Shown: positions 3,336 to 53,052 of the stretch, piece after piece
Position numbering within the stretch: the stretch's first letter is position 1
Layout: each line of letters starts with the position of its first letter
The notes under the pieces: generated by a model
Databases searched by the model: none
Told to the model about the DNA's origin: nothing
Seen by the model: only the letters and a program-made list of their open reading frames with translations
Position numbers and translations under genes: made by a program
DNA from: Escherichia coli
GTDB lineage: Bacteria; Pseudomonadota; Gammaproteobacteria; Enterobacterales; Enterobacteriaceae
DNA: 64,000 bases
Reading direction: 5' to 3' (one strand)
Assembly: GCF_003790525.1 (NCBI RefSeq)
Contig: NZ_CP033635.1

Positions 3336-3908
3336 TTAATATTGCGTAGGAGCTGGAACTGCCGAAGACGGATTCACCTGAGTTGGTGAAGTCGAAGGTA
3401 CGGTAGTCGTTGCGCCACCGCTGGCCTGAACCGGCACGGCGGTTTGCTGCACCGGCACCAATGTCAGGTCGGCTTTAGTTCCGCCCTGGTTGATCACCGG
3501 CTGAACGGTATCGGTAATAAATACCAGTTTGTCATTCACGGTAATCGCCGCACTCAACAGAATACGCGCATTCGGCTGAACATCTGCCGGGTTAAATGGC
3601 AGAACAAAGCTGAATGGTGACTGTTTACCTTCGGTACGCACCGCTTTCTGCGCCAGCACTTTTGACGGTGCATCGGCTAACGACGCGTCAGAAAGTGTCA
3701 CGGTCAGCACGGCATCAGGCGGCAGTGCGACTTTCTGACGGATCCAAACGGTACCGGAGACATTCGGTTGCTGGATAGCAGGTTGTTGTGTTGCTGAAAT
3801 AGACGTATTTGCAGCCGGTGCTGGCGTCTGAATATCCGCGCTTTTATCTGCGCAAGCCGCCAACGCAATCGCAACCGCTAAACCACTGGCCATGTGCACG
3901 AGTTTCAT
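3336..3908 (-). CDS. ybaY: lipoprotein YbaY
   Basis: 190 aa; signal peptide with lipobox LAACAD; synteny. Confidence 0.85.
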   Translation of the reverse strand: MKLVHMASGLAVAIALAACADKSADIQTPAPAANTSISATQQPAIQQPNVSGTVWIRQKVALPPDAVLTVTLSDASLADAPSKVLAQKAVRTEGKQSPFSFVLPFNPADVQPNARILLSAAITVNDKLVFITDTVQPVINQGGTKADLTLVPVQQTAVPVQASGGATTTVPSTSPTQVNPSSAVPAPTQY

Positions 3909-4125
3909 TCTCTTCTCCTTATTATCAATGCACCAGCGGGCTAACTTTCCTCGCCGGAAGAGTGGTTAACAAAATAGTAACGTCAACAAGTGTGGCACAC
4001 ATCACGCATTTCTGCCTGTAATTAGCCCGTAATTCAGACCATTGCACCCATCGGACCAGTGGCAAATTTGCGTTATACTCAACTCACTTTGGCTTGCTGC
4101 GGCAGCTTTGTTACTGGAGAGTTAT

Positions 4126-4986
4126 ATGAGTCAGGCGCTAAAAAATTTACTGACATTGTTAAATCTGGAAAAAATTGAGGAAGGACTCTTTCGCGGCCAG
4201 AGTGAAGATTTAGGTTTACGCCAGGTGTTTGGCGGCCAGGTCGTGGGTCAGGCCTTGTATGCTGCAAAAGAGACCGTCCCTGAAGAGCGGCTGGTACATT
4301 CGTTTCACAGCTACTTTCTTCGCCCAGGCGATAGTAAGAAACCGATTATTTATGATGTCGAAACGCTGCGTGACGGTAACAGCTTCAGCGCCCGCCGGGT
4401 TGCTGCTATTCAAAACGGCAAACCGATTTTTTATATGACGGCCTCTTTCCAGGCACCAGAAGCGGGTTTCGAACATCAAAAAACAATGCCGTCCGCGCCA
4501 GCGCCTGATGGCCTGCCTTCGGAAACGCAAATCGCCCAATCGCTGGCGCACCTGCTGCCGCCAGTGCTGAAAGATAAATTCATCTGCGATCGTCCGCTTG
4601 AAGTCCGTCCGGTGGAGTTTCATAACCCACTGAAAGGGCACGTCGCAGAACCGCATCGTCAGGTGTGGATCCGCGCAAATGGTAGCGTGCCGGATGATCT
4701 GCGCGTTCATCAGTATCTGCTCGGTTACGCTTCTGATCTTAACTTCCTGCCGGTAGCTCTACAGCCGCACGGCATCGGTTTTCTCGAACCAGGAATTCAG
4801 ATAGCGACCATCGACCATTCCATGTGGTTCCATCGCCCGTTTAATTTGAATGAATGGCTGCTGTATAGCGTGGAGAGCACCTCGGCGTCCAGCGCACGCG
4901 GCTTTGTGCGCGGTGAGTTTTATACTCAGGACGGCGTGCTGGTTGCCTCGACCGTTCAGGAAGGGGTAATGCGTAATCACAATTAA
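4126..4986 (+). CDS. tesB: acyl-CoA thioesterase II
   Basis: ORF 4042..4986; start at MSQALKNLL gives 286 aa; double hot-dog thioesterase. Confidence 0.9.
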
Positions 4987-32484: not shown

Positions 32485-32498
32485 TACAACCTCTCTAT

Positions 32499-32527
32499 AA
32501 AAAAGGTGCTACGGCACCTTTTTTATT
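32499..32527 (+). terminator. rho-independent terminator of the cyo operon
   Basis: AAAAAAGGTGC-TACG-GCACCTTTTTTATT. Confidence 0.85.
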
Positions 32528-32537
32528 GTCTGAGATC

Positions 32538-32564
32538 AGAGATACGGCTAATAACCGTATCTCT
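32538..32564. promoter_or_regulatory. palindromic operator candidate 1 (AGAGATACGG-N7-CCGTATCTCT)
   Basis: Perfect 10-bp-arm inverted repeat just upstream of the -35 box. Confidence 0.5.
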
Positions 32565-32593
32565 TGACAGAGTGAGCATATGCACATAAATTA
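32565..32593 (+). promoter_or_regulatory. sigma70-like promoter of the DUF1778/GNAT operon
   Basis: TTGACA, ~16-17 nt spacer, TAAATT; sits between two related palindromes. Confidence 0.55.
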
Positions 32594-32598
32594 ATCAC

Positions 32599-32613
32599 AC
32601 GGTTGATAGCCGT
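32599..32613. promoter_or_regulatory. palindromic operator candidate 2 (ACGG-N7-CCGT, shares GCCGTAT half-site)
   Basis: Second related inverted repeat just downstream of the -10 box. Confidence 0.45.
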
Positions 32614-32668
32614 ATTATGCATGAGATCGACTCCCTACGATTTCATTCAGTTAATCAAAGAGGTCATA

Positions 32669-32980
32669 ATGCCTGGAAAAACAGTCGCTCTACCCGATAT
32701 CGATAAAACGCTGAAAAATGCGCGGGTTGAACTCAAAACCAGCCCCGACGCCAAAAACAAACTTCGTGAAGCTGCGCAAGCCGTTGGGGTAGATTTAAGC
32801 GCTTTTATTTTGAGCGCAGCTATGGAACGCGCCGAAAGTGTGCTTGATAACCAACGTCGCCGTGAGCTTTCGAATCAAAGCTGGGAACTGATGAACCAAC
32901 TCATCGCTGAACCTGCTCAACCGACGCTCGCCCTCAAGGCGTTAATGAAAAGGAAAAACAGCGATGGTCGACAAGCATGA
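32669..32980 (+). CDS. DUF1778 (TacA/AtaR-like, RHH) antitoxin of a GNAT toxin-antitoxin pair
   Basis: ORF 32603..32980; Met MPGKTVALPDID preceded by AAAGAGG Shine-Dalgarno; ~103 aa; 17-bp overlap with downstream GNAT gene; resembles TacA/AtaR-type antitoxins. Confidence 0.75.
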   Translation: MPGKTVALPDIDKTLKNARVELKTSPDAKNKLREAAQAVGVDLSAFILSAAMERAESVLDNQRRRELSNQSWELMNQLIAEPAQPTLALKALMKRKNSDGRQA

Positions 32981-33506
32981 AGAGATTACTCTGCCCATAG
33001 TCCTCTCCTGTAATTATCAGTCTGATATTACTTATCCTGGGCAAAAACAGTTTGATTGCGGTAACCCTGTTATCGATAAATTTGTACGCGCATCGCTAAA
33101 GAAAAGTGTGCGTAATAGCGACTGTGCTGCTAAAGCTCTTATTGACAGACAAAGTGGTGAACTGATTGGCATCTGTACTTTTACGGCATATTCGCTGGAA
33201 AAACAACGCGTTTCTGGCGTCCTTCAGGGTTCACAACCTTCAGAGATTGGTGTTGTCAGATTAGTCATGTTAGGGGTAGCGCGGAAATATCAAAAGCGGG
33301 GCTTTGGTCAGGACCTACTATGTGATTTTTTTGAACATGTAAAAATAATTCACCGGGCATTACCAATTAAAGGGGTTTATCTTGATGCTGACCCTGCCGC
33401 CATTAACTTTTATACTCGCCTCGGCTTTGTTCAGCTTTCAGCGAGGCCCAATGTTTTCGGTGCTGTACCGATGTTTTTAGCGATTCAGCATATTCTCGCG
33501 GCTTAG
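32964..33506 (+). CDS. GNAT-family acetyltransferase toxin (TacT/AtaT/ItaT-like, predicted aminoacyl-tRNA acetylating)
   Basis: 180 aa; N-terminal FDCG motif; acetyl-CoA binding loop RKYQKRGFGQDLL; C-terminal FYTRLGF as in AtaT-like toxins; translationally coupled to the antitoxin. Confidence 0.75.
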   Translation: MVDKHEEITLPIVLSCNYQSDITYPGQKQFDCGNPVIDKFVRASLKKSVRNSDCAAKALIDRQSGELIGICTFTAYSLEKQRVSGVLQGSQPSEIGVVRLVMLGVARKYQKRGFGQDLLCDFFEHVKIIHRALPIKGVYLDADPAAINFYTRLGFVQLSARPNVFGAVPMFLAIQHILAA

Positions 33507-33561
33507 ATTATTATCGCCTCCGGCCAGGGCTAGTTTTGCCTCAGCCGGGGACTGAGCAGCG

Positions 33562-34497
33562 TTACCACTTTTGTTCAATTGCCCCCGCTTTCAGCAACTC
33601 CACATCCTTGCCGTTAATGGTTGCCGTTGCGGCAACGATTGTGGTCCTTACAGTTGCACAAGATTTTCGCTCAAATTCCGGTTTATAAAGAATTAGAGAC
33701 GAATTACTGGTAAATGAATCAAATATGTAATCAGTAAAGCTAATATTCAGCCGGTTTAAACCGAAAGGCGCGAAGCCAACCGTTTGGTTAATCTCCTTAC
33801 CGGATGGGCTACGAATGCTGAATGTCACGCGAAGATTGGCCACTTCGCCTAATTTATTGGTGGTGGCGAAGAGGCTATCCATGCAGGAAAAACCTTTATC
33901 TAAAAAATTATCCCGCATCCCAGAACGGGTAACCGTGATCACGGGTAACGTATCGTCAACCGTTTTTCTGTCAATCATGTCTTTTCGACATGTAGCCAGA
34001 AAGTCTTCCGGACCACCATAAATGTGGACACCTTTATCAAGATATTCCTTCGCTTTCTTACAATCTACCTCAACATACTGACCATTGGCGTACATCATGC
34101 CCAACCTGGACCATGCTAAATTCACACCGTATTGCGCGGCCTGATTAAATAGTGCATACGCTTTGGCATAATCCACCCGCACCAGCTCACCGTCGTAGTA
34201 GATACTCCCCAGCGCTAACGGAGCTTCTCTATCACCGTGTTTAGCGGCTAACTCAAACCATTTAATCGCTTCCTGAACATCAGGTTTGGTATCAAAGCGA
34301 GGCTGATAATATTCCCAGCCTAACAGGCTCTGCGCGTCGACATCTCCCAATTCAGCCATTTTATGCAGTCTATTTATAACATCGGGCGCAGGTTGACCAC
34401 CGTATATGCTGTCATACAATTCATGCGCTTTCTCGCTTGCCACCACGCATGGTGAAACTATTAGCATTAAAGAAAATAATATTCTTTTAGTTAACAT
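33562..34497 (-). CDS. secreted Sel1-repeat (TPR-like) protein with uncharacterized C-terminal domain
   Basis: ORF 33562..34557; probable start MLTKRILFSLMLIVSPCVVA (signal peptide); several Sel1-like repeats (AAKHGDREAPLALGSIYYDG, AAQYGVNLAWSRLGMMYANGQ); low GC; no K-12 counterpart recalled here. Confidence 0.65.
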   Translation of the reverse strand: MLTKRILFSLMLIVSPCVVASEKAHELYDSIYGGQPAPDVINRLHKMAELGDVDAQSLLGWEYYQPRFDTKPDVQEAIKWFELAAKHGDREAPLALGSIYYDGELVRVDYAKAYALFNQAAQYGVNLAWSRLGMMYANGQYVEVDCKKAKEYLDKGVHIYGGPEDFLATCRKDMIDRKTVDDTLPVITVTRSGMRDNFLDKGFSCMDSLFATTNKLGEVANLRVTFSIRSPSGKEINQTVGFAPFGLNRLNISFTDYIFDSFTSNSSLILYKPEFERKSCATVRTTIVAATATINGKDVELLKAGAIEQKW

Positions 34498-34903
34498 GTA
34501 TACCTTTATGTTCTCTCTGTCATATATTTCCATAATAATTAACCACCAAACATCCATTTAATGAATAAATACAGTACCATAAAGGCCCAAGTAATAAGCA
34601 CACATTTAACCTGAAACATTATCATCGATGTCACCAAATCGTTTATTTAGTGAGATAAAAATAGCATGTTCGCAAGATAAAAAATGCACATAGCAATCAA
34701 GAAATAATATTATTACTTTTGATGTAAAACTATTTAGCTTTAAGAATAATTTTTTCAACATATAGAGCATTCATTTTATGAATGCAAAATAAACATACCT
34801 GACACACAAACTATTCTCCTCTGTAATATTTTCTCATTAACACTCTGTTTACCCAACATGCGCTCCGCACTACACTATGTGGGCATTTTTTTAAGAGGTG
34901 GTA

Positions 34904-48593: not shown

Positions 48594-48724
48594 ATGAATA
48601 CTAACGTTTTTCGACTGCTCCTGCTGGGAAGCCTGTTCAGCCTTAGCGCCTGTGTGCAGCAAAGCGAAGTGCGGCAGATGAAACACAGCGTCAGCACACT
48701 GAACCAGGAGATGACGCAACTCAT
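48594..48724 (+). pseudogene. yajI: yajI lipoprotein gene, 5' fragment interrupted by an IS insertion
   Basis: MNTNVFRLLLLGSLFSLSAC (lipobox) ... EMTQL then the reading frame runs into IS-derived sequence and stops; the remaining ~134 codons resume at ~50473. Confidence 0.75.
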
Positions 48725-48766
48725 TGACATCCTCCACGCCCTGAAGGACGTGGATCCCTGCTACGT

Positions 48767-49975
48767 TCAGGCTGTCGCCTGAATCATTTCGGTGGGTTCC
48801 TGCTTCAACGGGCGGCCTGACTGCACCATCCCTCCACAGGCAAGAACGGCGTGCCCCGCCGCTAAAATGTTACGAGCGCCATTTACATCGGCGTTCGCTG
48901 TATATCCACATACCTGGCATCTGAATTGACTTTGTGACAGGCGATTTTCTTTCGCTGTATGACCACAGCACGTGCAACGCTGGCTTGTGTACGCTGGCGG
49001 AACAGCAAGCACCTGACCGCCACGCCAGAGCTGCTTGTACTCAAGCTGGCGGCGCATTTCATACCAGCCCTGATCCAGTACCGAACGGTTTAAACCTGAT
49101 TTTGCCCGGACATTGCGTCCCGGCTGGCTGACCGTACCCGCTGCTGACTTTGACATGTTGCTGACCTTCAAATCCTCAATGACTATCATTGCGTGGTTTT
49201 TGCTGACGGTCGTTGTGACTTTGTGAAGGTAGTCCCTGCGGATATTTGCGATACGGGAATGCAGTCGCTGTATTTTGCGTTTCTGCTTCTGCCAGTTATT
49301 GCTGAATTCGACCTTGCGGCTTAACTGTCGCTGAAGTCTCGCCAGCGTCTTCTGGTTTTTCTGAAAACTGTTTACAGGCTCAAAGACTGTGCCATCTGAC
49401 AGCGTGGCGAGTTTAGCCACGCCAGCATCCAGCCCGACCATTGATGCTGAAGGGTGAACCGGAGTGGATACTTCACTTTCTGTCTGAATACTGATGTACC
49501 ACTTACCGCAGGACTGGCTGACAGTGACATTTTTCACAACACCCGTGACCTGGCGGCTGTTCCGGTAGCGCATCCAGCCCAGTTTCGGCAGAAAAATACG
49601 GCTGTTTTCCTGATCGAGCTTAACGCCCTGCGGGTAGCGGAATGCATCATTCTGTCCCCGCTTTTTGAATCGGGGAAAAGCAGCCCGCTTCTGGAAGAAG
49701 TTTTTGTAAGCCCGCTCAAGGTCTTTCAGTGACTGTTGCAATGGCTGTGAGGGCGAATCTTTAAGCCATTGCGTTCCAGTGGCGTTTTTCCACTCAACCA
49801 GCCAGGAAGCCATTTTCCCGTAAGGGATGTATTTATTACCGGCCTCATGATTCTCATTCTGAAGCGCCAGAGCACGATTGAAAACGAAACGACATGCGCC
49901 TGCGAAGCGCCTCATTTCATGCTCCTGTTGACCACCGGGTCTTAACTGGAATTTAAATGCCTGTAGTCGTTTCAC
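48767..49975 (-). CDS. tnpB: IS605-family TnpB (OrfB; RuvC-like RNA-guided endonuclease family)
   Basis: 402 aa uninterrupted; N-terminal [13 protein letters not shown]...RFVFN; RuvC-I LDAGV, RuvC-II IEDL, zinc finger CTCCGH...CQVCG, Ruv[12 protein letters not shown]. Confidence 0.85.
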
Positions 49976-49997
49976 AGGTCAAATTATATTTTGGTCT

Positions 49998-50470
49998 GTG
50001 AAAAAAGAAACCGATATCCGGCGTGGAAGGCATTGTGTTTTCCTGATGCATGTTCACCTGGTCTTTGTCCCAAATACCGACGCCAGATTTTTGACCATGA
50101 CGCGACAGAAAAACTACGCACTTACTTTTCAAATGTATGTGCTGATTTTGAAGCTGAACGGGTTGAAATGGATGGCGAACCAGATCACGTCCATTTGTTA
50201 ATTAACTATCCTCCCAAACTGGCGATATCCAGTCTGGTAAACAGCCTCAAAGGTGTATCGGGTAGGTGACTGCGACGAGATCGACCAGATATTGCAGTCA
50301 GGTATTACTACAAAGGCGTTTTGTGGAGTCCTGGCTATTTTGCCAGTAGCTGCGGAGGTGCGCCAATATCCGTCATCCGCCAATACATTGAACAACAGCA
50401 AACACCTGGTCAGGTGGAAAACCGCGCCTTATATCCCCGCCCTGAAGGACGGGGTTTTACGGCGCACCGG
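49998..50470 (+). pseudogene. tnpA: IS200-type Y1 (HUH) transposase TnpA, disrupted by multiple frameshifts
   Basis: TnpA-like segments spread over three frames: HVHLVFVP / PKYRRQIF...HVHLLINYPPKLAISSLVNSLKG / WSPGYFASSCGGAPISVIRQYIEQQ. Confidence 0.7.
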
Positions 50471-50472
50471 AT

Positions 50473-50880
50473 AAAGAAACCGTCAAAATCACTCAGCAAA
50501 ACAGGCTGAATGCAAAATCCAGCAGTGGGGTTTACCTTCTGCCTGGAGCGAAAACACCGGCAAGACTGGAAAGCCAGATCGGTACTTTACGTATGTCGCT
50601 AGTGAATATTACGCATGATACAGATGGCACCACCCTGACGCTACGTATTCAGGGCGAGTCGAATGACCCCTTGCCCGCATTCAGCGGAACTGTTGAATAT
50701 GGGCAAATTCAGGGAACAATAGACAACTTTCAGGAAATCAATTTGCAGAATCAATTGATTAATGCCCCTGCCAGCGTCCTCGTCCCCAGCGATGTTGATA
50801 TTCCGTTACAGTTAAAGGGGATTTCTGTAGAACAGTTAGACTTTGTACGTATCCACGACATTCAACCTGTTATGCAGTAA
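50473..50880 (+). pseudogene. yajI: yajI lipoprotein gene, 3' fragment downstream of the IS insertion
   Basis: In-frame ETVKITQQNRLNAKSS...DIQPVMQ continues the YajI sequence; ORF-track Met at 50593 is internal. Confidence 0.75.
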
Positions 50881-52535: not shown

Positions 52536-52817
52536 TTACCAGTGACGGCGAGGTTCCATCAGCTGATGAAGAATGCGCGCAATGAGAATGTCATCGACTC
52601 TTATAACGTAATAAACAGTGTGAAACCTAAATGCGATCTTCTTTACCTCTGGAATCGCATCATAGTCTTGCCCTATCTCGGGCATTTGAGAGAGTGTATC
52701 CAGAAAAATGCCGAGAGAGTCGGTATAGCGATCCGCCTGCTCCTCACCAAACTTTCCCAGCGTGTAGTCATAGATCCCTCTGAAATCTTCAACAGCTTTT
52801 CCGCTAAGCTTATACAC
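52536..52817 (-). CDS. ParE/RelE-superfamily toxin of a type II toxin-antitoxin pair
   Basis: ORF 52536..52850; likely GTG start whose GTGTATAA overlaps the antitoxin stop, giving ~93 aa; ParE-like core. Confidence 0.7.
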   Translation of the reverse strand: MYKLSGKAVEDFRGIYDYTLGKFGEEQADRYTDSLGIFLDTLSQMPEIGQDYDAIPEVKKIAFRFHTVYYVIRVDDILIARILHQLMEPRRHW

Positions 52818-53052
52818 GATGTTTTTGCTTCCTTTCTGCTGCGATATCACGAAGCGTCATCGAACTTTCACCGCTCTCAAGACCTTCAATAACAGCATTT
52901 CTGACAGCTTCATCCCTGGATTCTTGTTGTTCCAATAGACGAAGCGCTGAACGCATTACTTCACTGGCCGAGCCATAACGACCAGACTGGACCATCCGTG
53001 TAATAAAACTATCTAATTGTTCGCCAACGCTTACTGAGGTAATTTTGCGCAT
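52810..53052 (-). CDS. ParD-family (RHH/CopG-like) antitoxin
   Basis: 80 aa; ...SGRYGSASEVMRSALRLLEQQE...GLESGES... typical of ParD/COG3609 antitoxins; directly upstream of and overlapping the toxin. Confidence 0.75.
   Translation of the reverse strand: MRKITSVSVGEQLDSFITRMVQSGRYGSASEVMRSALRLLEQQESRDEAVRNAVIEGLESGESSMTLRDIAAERKQKHRV

Follow-up and report, generated by a model that had tools for sequence, protein, structure and literature searches.

Between cyoE and yajR, this Escherichia coli chromosome carries two overlapping open reading frames on the + strand, which raises the question of whether the junction harbors a toxin-antitoxin (TA) system that has already been described, a relative of such a system, or an acetyltransferase gene of another kind. 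A previous reading of the DNA letters (the sequence-only reading) attributed the two genes to a DUF1778 antitoxin and a GNAT toxin of the TacT, AtaT, and ItaT type, and described cyoE and yajR as neighbors in K-12. Adjacency was confirmed in MG1655, in which the two genes are separated by a gap of 148 nt. The stretch of DNA analyzed here, referred to below as the window, consists of 64,000 nucleotides.

The segment of the window extending from 32490 to 33560 (1071 nt queried) matched the E. coli SMS-3-5 chromosome (NC_010498.1) with 100% identity. Comparison of the acetyltransferase with AtaT, ItaT, TacT, and KacT, which had been proposed as a check, identified ItaT as the best match. In the PDB, the protein was matched over its full length by entry 7BYY (E = 1.3e-115), which is ItaT(G115D) (PMC7367177). 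Residue 115 is Asp in this structure, owing to the engineered inactivating mutation, and the native Gly is encoded in the window. ItaRT was first described in E. coli HS (PMC6125619; Wilcox et al., 2018). The acetyltransferase of the window is identical to ItaT from HS at 176 of 180 positions (97.8%), and the product of the upstream gene is identical to ItaR from HS at 100 of 103 positions. Near-identity of both proteins at a syntenic locus indicates that the pair is the SMS-3-5 allele of itaRT rather than just an 'ItaT-like' system. All the features of ItaRT that can be assessed in the sequence were present, including orthology, location, the acetyl-CoA motif, the catalytic Tyr, the residues of the aminoacyl pocket, and an overlapping upstream gene encoding an RHH/DUF1778 partner. 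We estimate at about 0.93 the probability that the two genes form an itaR-itaT (ItaRT) type II TA operon corresponding to the SMS-3-5 allele. The pair is therefore already known, and the sequence-only reading was correct both in its observation and in its interpretation.

The itaR gene (32669 to 32980, + strand) encodes a 103-residue RHH/DUF1778 antitoxin of the TacA family, in agreement with the size and family originally proposed. Pfam assigned the protein to TacA1/DUF1778 (PF08681; 1.3e-17), and its structural relatives in the PDB were KacA (3.5e-11) and AtaR (8.6e-09). The computed mass of 11.4 kDa is equal to the published value. The ATG initiation codon at position 32669 is preceded by an AGAGG Shine-Dalgarno sequence. 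An alternative TTG initiation codon at position 32603, leading to a 125-residue protein, was rejected since the ATG codon is associated with the AGAGG sequence, yields a product of the published mass (11.4 kDa), and was retained as the start by RefSeq. The three differences between the alleles are clustered at the N-terminus (from HS to the window, A6V, T7A, and V11I), residues 12 to 103 being identical.

The itaT gene (32964 to 33506, + strand) starts with an ATG codon located within itaR, the two genes sharing the 17 nt (ATGGTCGACAAGCATGA) that had been noted as a translational overlap. The deduced protein of 180 residues has a computed mass of 19.9 kDa, versus a published mass of 19.8 kDa, and is predicted to be a GNAT acetyltransferase acting on aminoacyl-tRNA. 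The two motifs that had drawn attention to the protein were located at residues 30 to 33 (FDCG) and 107 to 117 (RKYQKRGFGQD, the acetyl-CoA loop). Pfam detected three GNAT families (Acetyltransf_7, Acetyltransf_10, and Acetyltransf_1; best value of 1.6e-07). NCBIfam returned only generic matches below threshold for ItaR, ItaT, and the product of the neighboring Sel1-repeat gene described below, the GNAT protein being directed to MshD and PaiA. PADLOC returned no match for ItaR or ItaT and a single weak and meaningless match for the Sel1-repeat protein, indicating no connection to a catalogued defence system.

Mutagenesis guided by the structure of ItaT from HS has assigned roles to G115 in the acetyl-CoA loop, to Y150 as the general acid, to V36, I37, F40, and M102 in the aminoacyl pocket, and to L133 at the dimer interface (PMC7367177). 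All these residues are present in the protein encoded by the window. In particular, the acetyl-CoA motif QKRGFG is intact at positions 110 to 115, including G115, and the catalytic Tyr150 is retained, as are the four hydrophobic residues of the pocket and L133. Mutation of K46/K47 or K80, on the basic surface proposed to bind tRNA, slightly reduces toxicity; K39, R42, R50, and R82 also belong to this surface, although no mutants were made at these positions (PMC7367177). All seven of these basic residues (K46, K47, K80, K39, R42, R50, and R82) are retained in the window. The four substitutions that distinguish the alleles (Q131R, A151T, T161R, and an Ala/Val change at residue 164) do not affect any residue tested by mutagenesis.

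The function of the system has been established with the HS allele. Induction of itaT halts growth and protein synthesis, and co-expression of itaR rescues growth (PMC6125619, PMC7367177, PMC9177977). ItaT is toxic, is neutralised by ItaR, and acetylates Ile-tRNAIle; it also acetylates Val- and Met-tRNA, both in vivo and in vitro (PMC6125619, PMC7367177, PMC9177977). The substitutions Y150A and Y150F abolish toxicity (PMC6125619, PMC7367177, PMC9177977), as does G115D (PMC7367177). In ribosome profiling, ItaT made ribosomes pause at codons for Ile, predominantly AUU and AUC, and peptidyl-tRNA hydrolase (Pth) was found to counteract toxicity (PMC6125619, PMC7367177, PMC9177977), observations indicating that the block occurs at elongation. 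ItaR and ItaT co-purify, apparently in stoichiometric amounts (PMC6125619, PMC7367177, PMC9177977). The ItaR-ItaT complex, but not ItaR alone, represses about 40-fold a promoter carried by a 172-bp upstream fragment, and ItaR is not acetylated by ItaT (PMC6125619).

Considering the close similarity between the two alleles, the SMS-3-5 allele is expected to be active and to operate in the same manner. ItaT would be a dimeric GNAT enzyme mainly targeting Ile-tRNAIle, with Val- and Met-tRNA as weaker substrates. Once blocked in this way, the tRNAs could not be used in elongation, a defect that would lead to ribosome stalling at Ile codons and to growth arrest. ItaR would tightly bind and neutralise ItaT, the ItaR-ItaT complex would repress the promoter of its own operon, and peptidyl-tRNA hydrolase could offset the damage caused by the toxin.

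Chromosomal TA modules frequently decay, raising the possibility that the window contains an attenuated allele, a harmless remnant whose toxicity would be weakened or abolished by the four ItaT substitutions, A151T among them. Two of the four differences from the HS toxin that has been tested are indeed located near functional residues, since A151T adjoins the catalytic Tyr150 and Q131R is two residues away from L133 at the dimer interface. However, the position following the catalytic Tyr is variable in active relatives, being occupied by Leu in KacT and by Glu in the acetyltransferase of PDB entry 9ILR, and every residue of ItaT tested by mutagenesis is retained. Both open reading frames are also full length, with intact initiation codons, Shine-Dalgarno sequences, and overlap. 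Comparison of the itaT codons of the window and of HS revealed 13 synonymous and 4 non-synonymous differences, an excess that fits with purifying selection acting on the gene. Finally, the class of alleles at least 99% identical to that of the window is present in 101 genomes. Together, these observations make a decayed module very unlikely, and favor a functional itaRT allele.

The sequence upstream from itaR provided additional information on the operon. The start of the pair had been placed at 32530, a position that includes the promoter region, the coding part beginning only at 32669. A sigma-70 promoter of itaRT is predicted at positions 32564 to 32592 (+ strand), with a TTGACA hexamer separated by 17 nt from a TAAATT hexamer. 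This is the joint-best promoter-like site of the region (10 of 12 matches), and it falls inside the 172-bp upstream fragment that displays ItaRT-repressible activity in HS (PMC6125619). Two palindromes bracket the predicted promoter. Palindrome 1 (ATACGG-N7-CCGTAT; 32542 to 32560, + strand), located just upstream from the –35 hexamer, has perfect arms and is a candidate operator half. Palindrome 2 (ACACGG-N7-CCGTAT; 32597 to 32615, + strand), located just downstream from the –10 hexamer, contains one mismatch and is the other candidate half. The two palindromes are separated by 55 nt from start to start. Searching the 64-kb window for ATACGG-N7-CCGTAT with one mismatch allowed returned these 2 matches, versus 0.09 expected by chance. 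In the HS allele, the arms of both palindromes are perfect.

The same layout was found on a Citrobacter freundii plasmid (NZ_CP145667.1) that encodes a DUF1778/GNAT pair, the toxin of which shares 77% protein identity with ItaT. Upstream from this pair, a palindrome, a TTGAC(G) hexamer, a –10 hexamer, and a second palindrome occur in this order, and the spacing of the palindromes is also 55 nt. In a three-way alignment of the window, HS, and Citrobacter sequences, the palindromes and both hexamers were conserved; the spacer and the flanking regions had diverged. Preservation of the palindrome layout upstream from such a divergent pair designates the palindromes as candidate ItaRT operators, and they are probably the sites bound by the ItaR-ItaT complex. 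The papers on ItaT that were consulted contain no mapping of the ItaRT operators. The palindromes bracketing the –35 and –10 hexamers constitute a testable operator prediction for ItaRT.

To the left of the promoter, a hairpin (32497 to 32526, + strand) forms the terminator of cyoE; it comprises an inverted repeat of 13 nt, without mismatch, and a downstream T run. Sequence in common with K-12 stops at this hairpin, and the variable block starts beyond it. In the alignment with K-12, homology ends at about 32524-32527 and resumes, in a diverged form, at about 34807 in the region upstream from yajR. The variable block (32528 to 34806) spans about 2.28 kb and contains itaR, itaT, and a gene encoding a Sel1-repeat protein. 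Its counterpart in K-12 consists of about 11 nt. Location of the pair between cyoE and yajR was accordingly confirmed, but the pair was not inserted alone, since the Sel1-repeat gene shares the variable block. The GC content of the wider non-matching span (32525-34893) is 42.5% versus 51% for the window. Between positions 34807 and 34897, upstream from yajR, the window is about 70% identical to K-12, versus 97-99% in the flanking genes, and the promoter sequences of yajR may therefore differ between the haplotypes.

The annotation did not reveal any integrase, IS element, or tRNA gene beside the block, Rfam and tRNA scans detected no RNA gene in or beside the itaRT locus, and no target-site duplication was seen at the boundaries of the block on reading by eye. 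In the RefSeq annotation of SMS-3-5, cyoABCDE is followed by the DUF1778 gene, the GNAT gene, an oppositely oriented gene for a 'tetratricopeptide repeat protein', and yajR. The gene order is the same in HS (cyoE, the DUF1778 gene itaR, the GNAT gene itaT, the TPR/Sel1 gene, and yajR). The blocks of SMS-3-5 and HS are 96.5% identical over 2371 nt; identity in the flanking cyo and yajR genes is about 98-98.6%. Greater divergence of the block than of its flanks suggests long residence at this site rather than a recent gain by SMS-3-5.

The distribution of the pair was determined in complete E. coli genomes. itaRT was present in 1371 of 5426 genomes, nearly always as a single chromosomal copy, and an intact K-12-type empty junction was present in 4053. 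The claim that the pair is strain-variable was thus borne out. The two counts sum to 5424, which is the total number of genomes matching the junction query, indicating a presence/absence polymorphism in which a single site has two states and is occupied in about 25% of the genomes. Two classes of alleles were distinguished, identity to the window being 99% or more in 101 genomes and 95-99% in 1270 genomes (HS/BL21 type). Searching PLSDB with the whole block returned three matching records (CP061270.1, CP099174.1, and NZ_OL790696.1) of 1.2-4.8 Mb. These records are evidently chromosomal sequences, indicating that the E. coli block is not plasmid-borne. More generally, PLSDB counts obtained for chromosomal genes have to be read with caution, since megabase chromosomal records are filed in this database as E. 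coli 'plasmids'.

The Sel1-repeat gene (33562 to 34497, – strand) is convergent with itaT, from which it is separated by a 55-nt gap. The N-terminus of the protein (311 aa as annotated) resembles a signal peptide, and Pfam placed Sel1 repeats at residues 54-155 of the protein; its C-terminal half (about 150 aa) had no Pfam match. Its best relative in the PDB is 4BWR, corresponding to c5321 of E. coli CFT073 (3.9e-39). The gene was found in 1369 of the 5426 complete genomes, versus 1371 for itaRT. Such near-perfect co-inheritance, within one low-GC indel, could indicate that the three genes form a single functional unit, for example one in which the TA pair stabilises or regulates a secreted Sel1 protein. 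Yet genes with only 55 nt between them, carried by the same indel, are expected to be inherited together through linkage alone, and the position of the Sel1-repeat gene on the opposite strand implies that it is transcribed separately from itaRT. In addition, ItaRT functions as a two-gene TA system when cloned alone, and the closest plasmid-borne homologue, that of Citrobacter, has no Sel1 neighbor. A functional three-gene unit is on these grounds highly improbable. Even the broader proposal that either such an accessory unit exists or the SMS-3-5 ItaT, with its A151T substitution, differs from that of HS in aminoacyl-tRNA specificity is quite unlikely. A two-gene TA operon, ItaRT, remains the preferred reading.

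That the GNAT could instead have a housekeeping role, with a small molecule or a protein as its substrate, next to an unrelated small open reading frame, has a negligible probability, since the generic Pfam GNAT matches and the sub-threshold NCBIfam matches to MshD and PaiA are outweighed by a partner belonging to the TacA antitoxin family and, decisively, by 97.8% identity to a toxin demonstrated to acetylate tRNA and by the lack of the gene in about 75% of E. coli genomes, the latter contradicting the presence in all strains that the sequence-only reading had considered as a counter-indication.

Other features were noted elsewhere in the window. Another small TA-like pair, comprising an antitoxin of the ParD family (80 aa) and a toxin of the RelE/ParE family according to the annotation, is located at positions 52536-53052 (– strand), between secF and yajD. 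In E. coli HS, secF is adjacent to yajD, and the ParD/RelE-ParE pair therefore also looks strain-variable. At positions ~48594-50880, the DUF3251 lipoprotein gene yajI is interrupted by an IS200/IS605 element; the RefSeq annotation of this region comprises a tnpA pseudogene with a frameshift and an intact gene for a TnpB/InsQ RNA-guided endonuclease. An open reading frame encoding a hypothetical protein of 481 residues with a Lys/Glu-rich middle is located at positions 59362-60807 (– strand), between malZ and acpH, which in E. coli HS directly adjoin each other.

ItaRT is among the best-characterised systems based on a tRNA-acetylating GNAT toxin, and the pair present in the window, a 98%-identical allele, brings little that is new in this respect. 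The experiments advocated by the sequence-only reading, namely assessment of toxicity, rescue by the antitoxin, and mass spectrometry of acetylated aminoacyl-tRNA, are already in print for the HS allele. The by-products of our analysis are modest and comprise the presence of the pair in ~25% of the genomes, the extent of the three-gene block, and the operator prediction.

Among known systems, the closest is ItaR-ItaT of E. coli HS and BL21(DE3), with which the pair of the window shares the genes, the locus, the overlap, the promoter, and the functional residues (PMC6125619; PMC7367177, Zhang et al., 2020; PMC9177977, Nucleic Acids Res. 2022). The alleles of the window and of HS differ by a nucleotide divergence of ~3.5% across the block and by one base in an arm of palindrome 2. 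The Citrobacter homologue occupies a different setting, as it is located at positions 3465-4546 of the extracted locus, between genes annotated as encoding baseplate and phage tail proteins, on a plasmid of 97 kb that is phage-plasmid-like. KacA-KacT of Klebsiella pneumoniae (5ZGN, 5XUN) has the same type II architecture combining DUF1778 and GNAT proteins. Among the named relatives of ItaR for which a structure is available, KacA is the closest, and KacT is the closest named relative of the toxin after ItaT itself (1.7e-06), the unnamed N-acetyltransferase 9ILR giving a better match (4.9e-09). Sequence similarity between KacA-KacT and ItaRT is nevertheless distant, indicating a separate member of the family and not an orthologue. 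In AtaR-AtaT of E. coli O157:H7 (6AJM, 6GTS), as in ItaRT, a DUF1778 antitoxin is paired with an aminoacyl-tRNA-acetylating GNAT toxin, and a Gly-to-Asp substitution in the acetyl-CoA loop inactivates AtaT and ItaT alike. However, AtaT is distant from ItaT (E of about 1e-05), belongs to clade A rather than to clade B, and, unlike ItaT, is biased to Gly-tRNA and Met-tRNA. TacA-TacT of Salmonella Typhimurium (5FVJ) includes the founding tRNA-acetylating GNAT toxin, and TacA has given its name to the Pfam family that contains ItaR. TacT is only a weak sequence match to ItaT (8e-04), and the two toxins differ in their action on their partners, since TacA is a substrate of TacT, but ItaR is not acetylated by ItaT.
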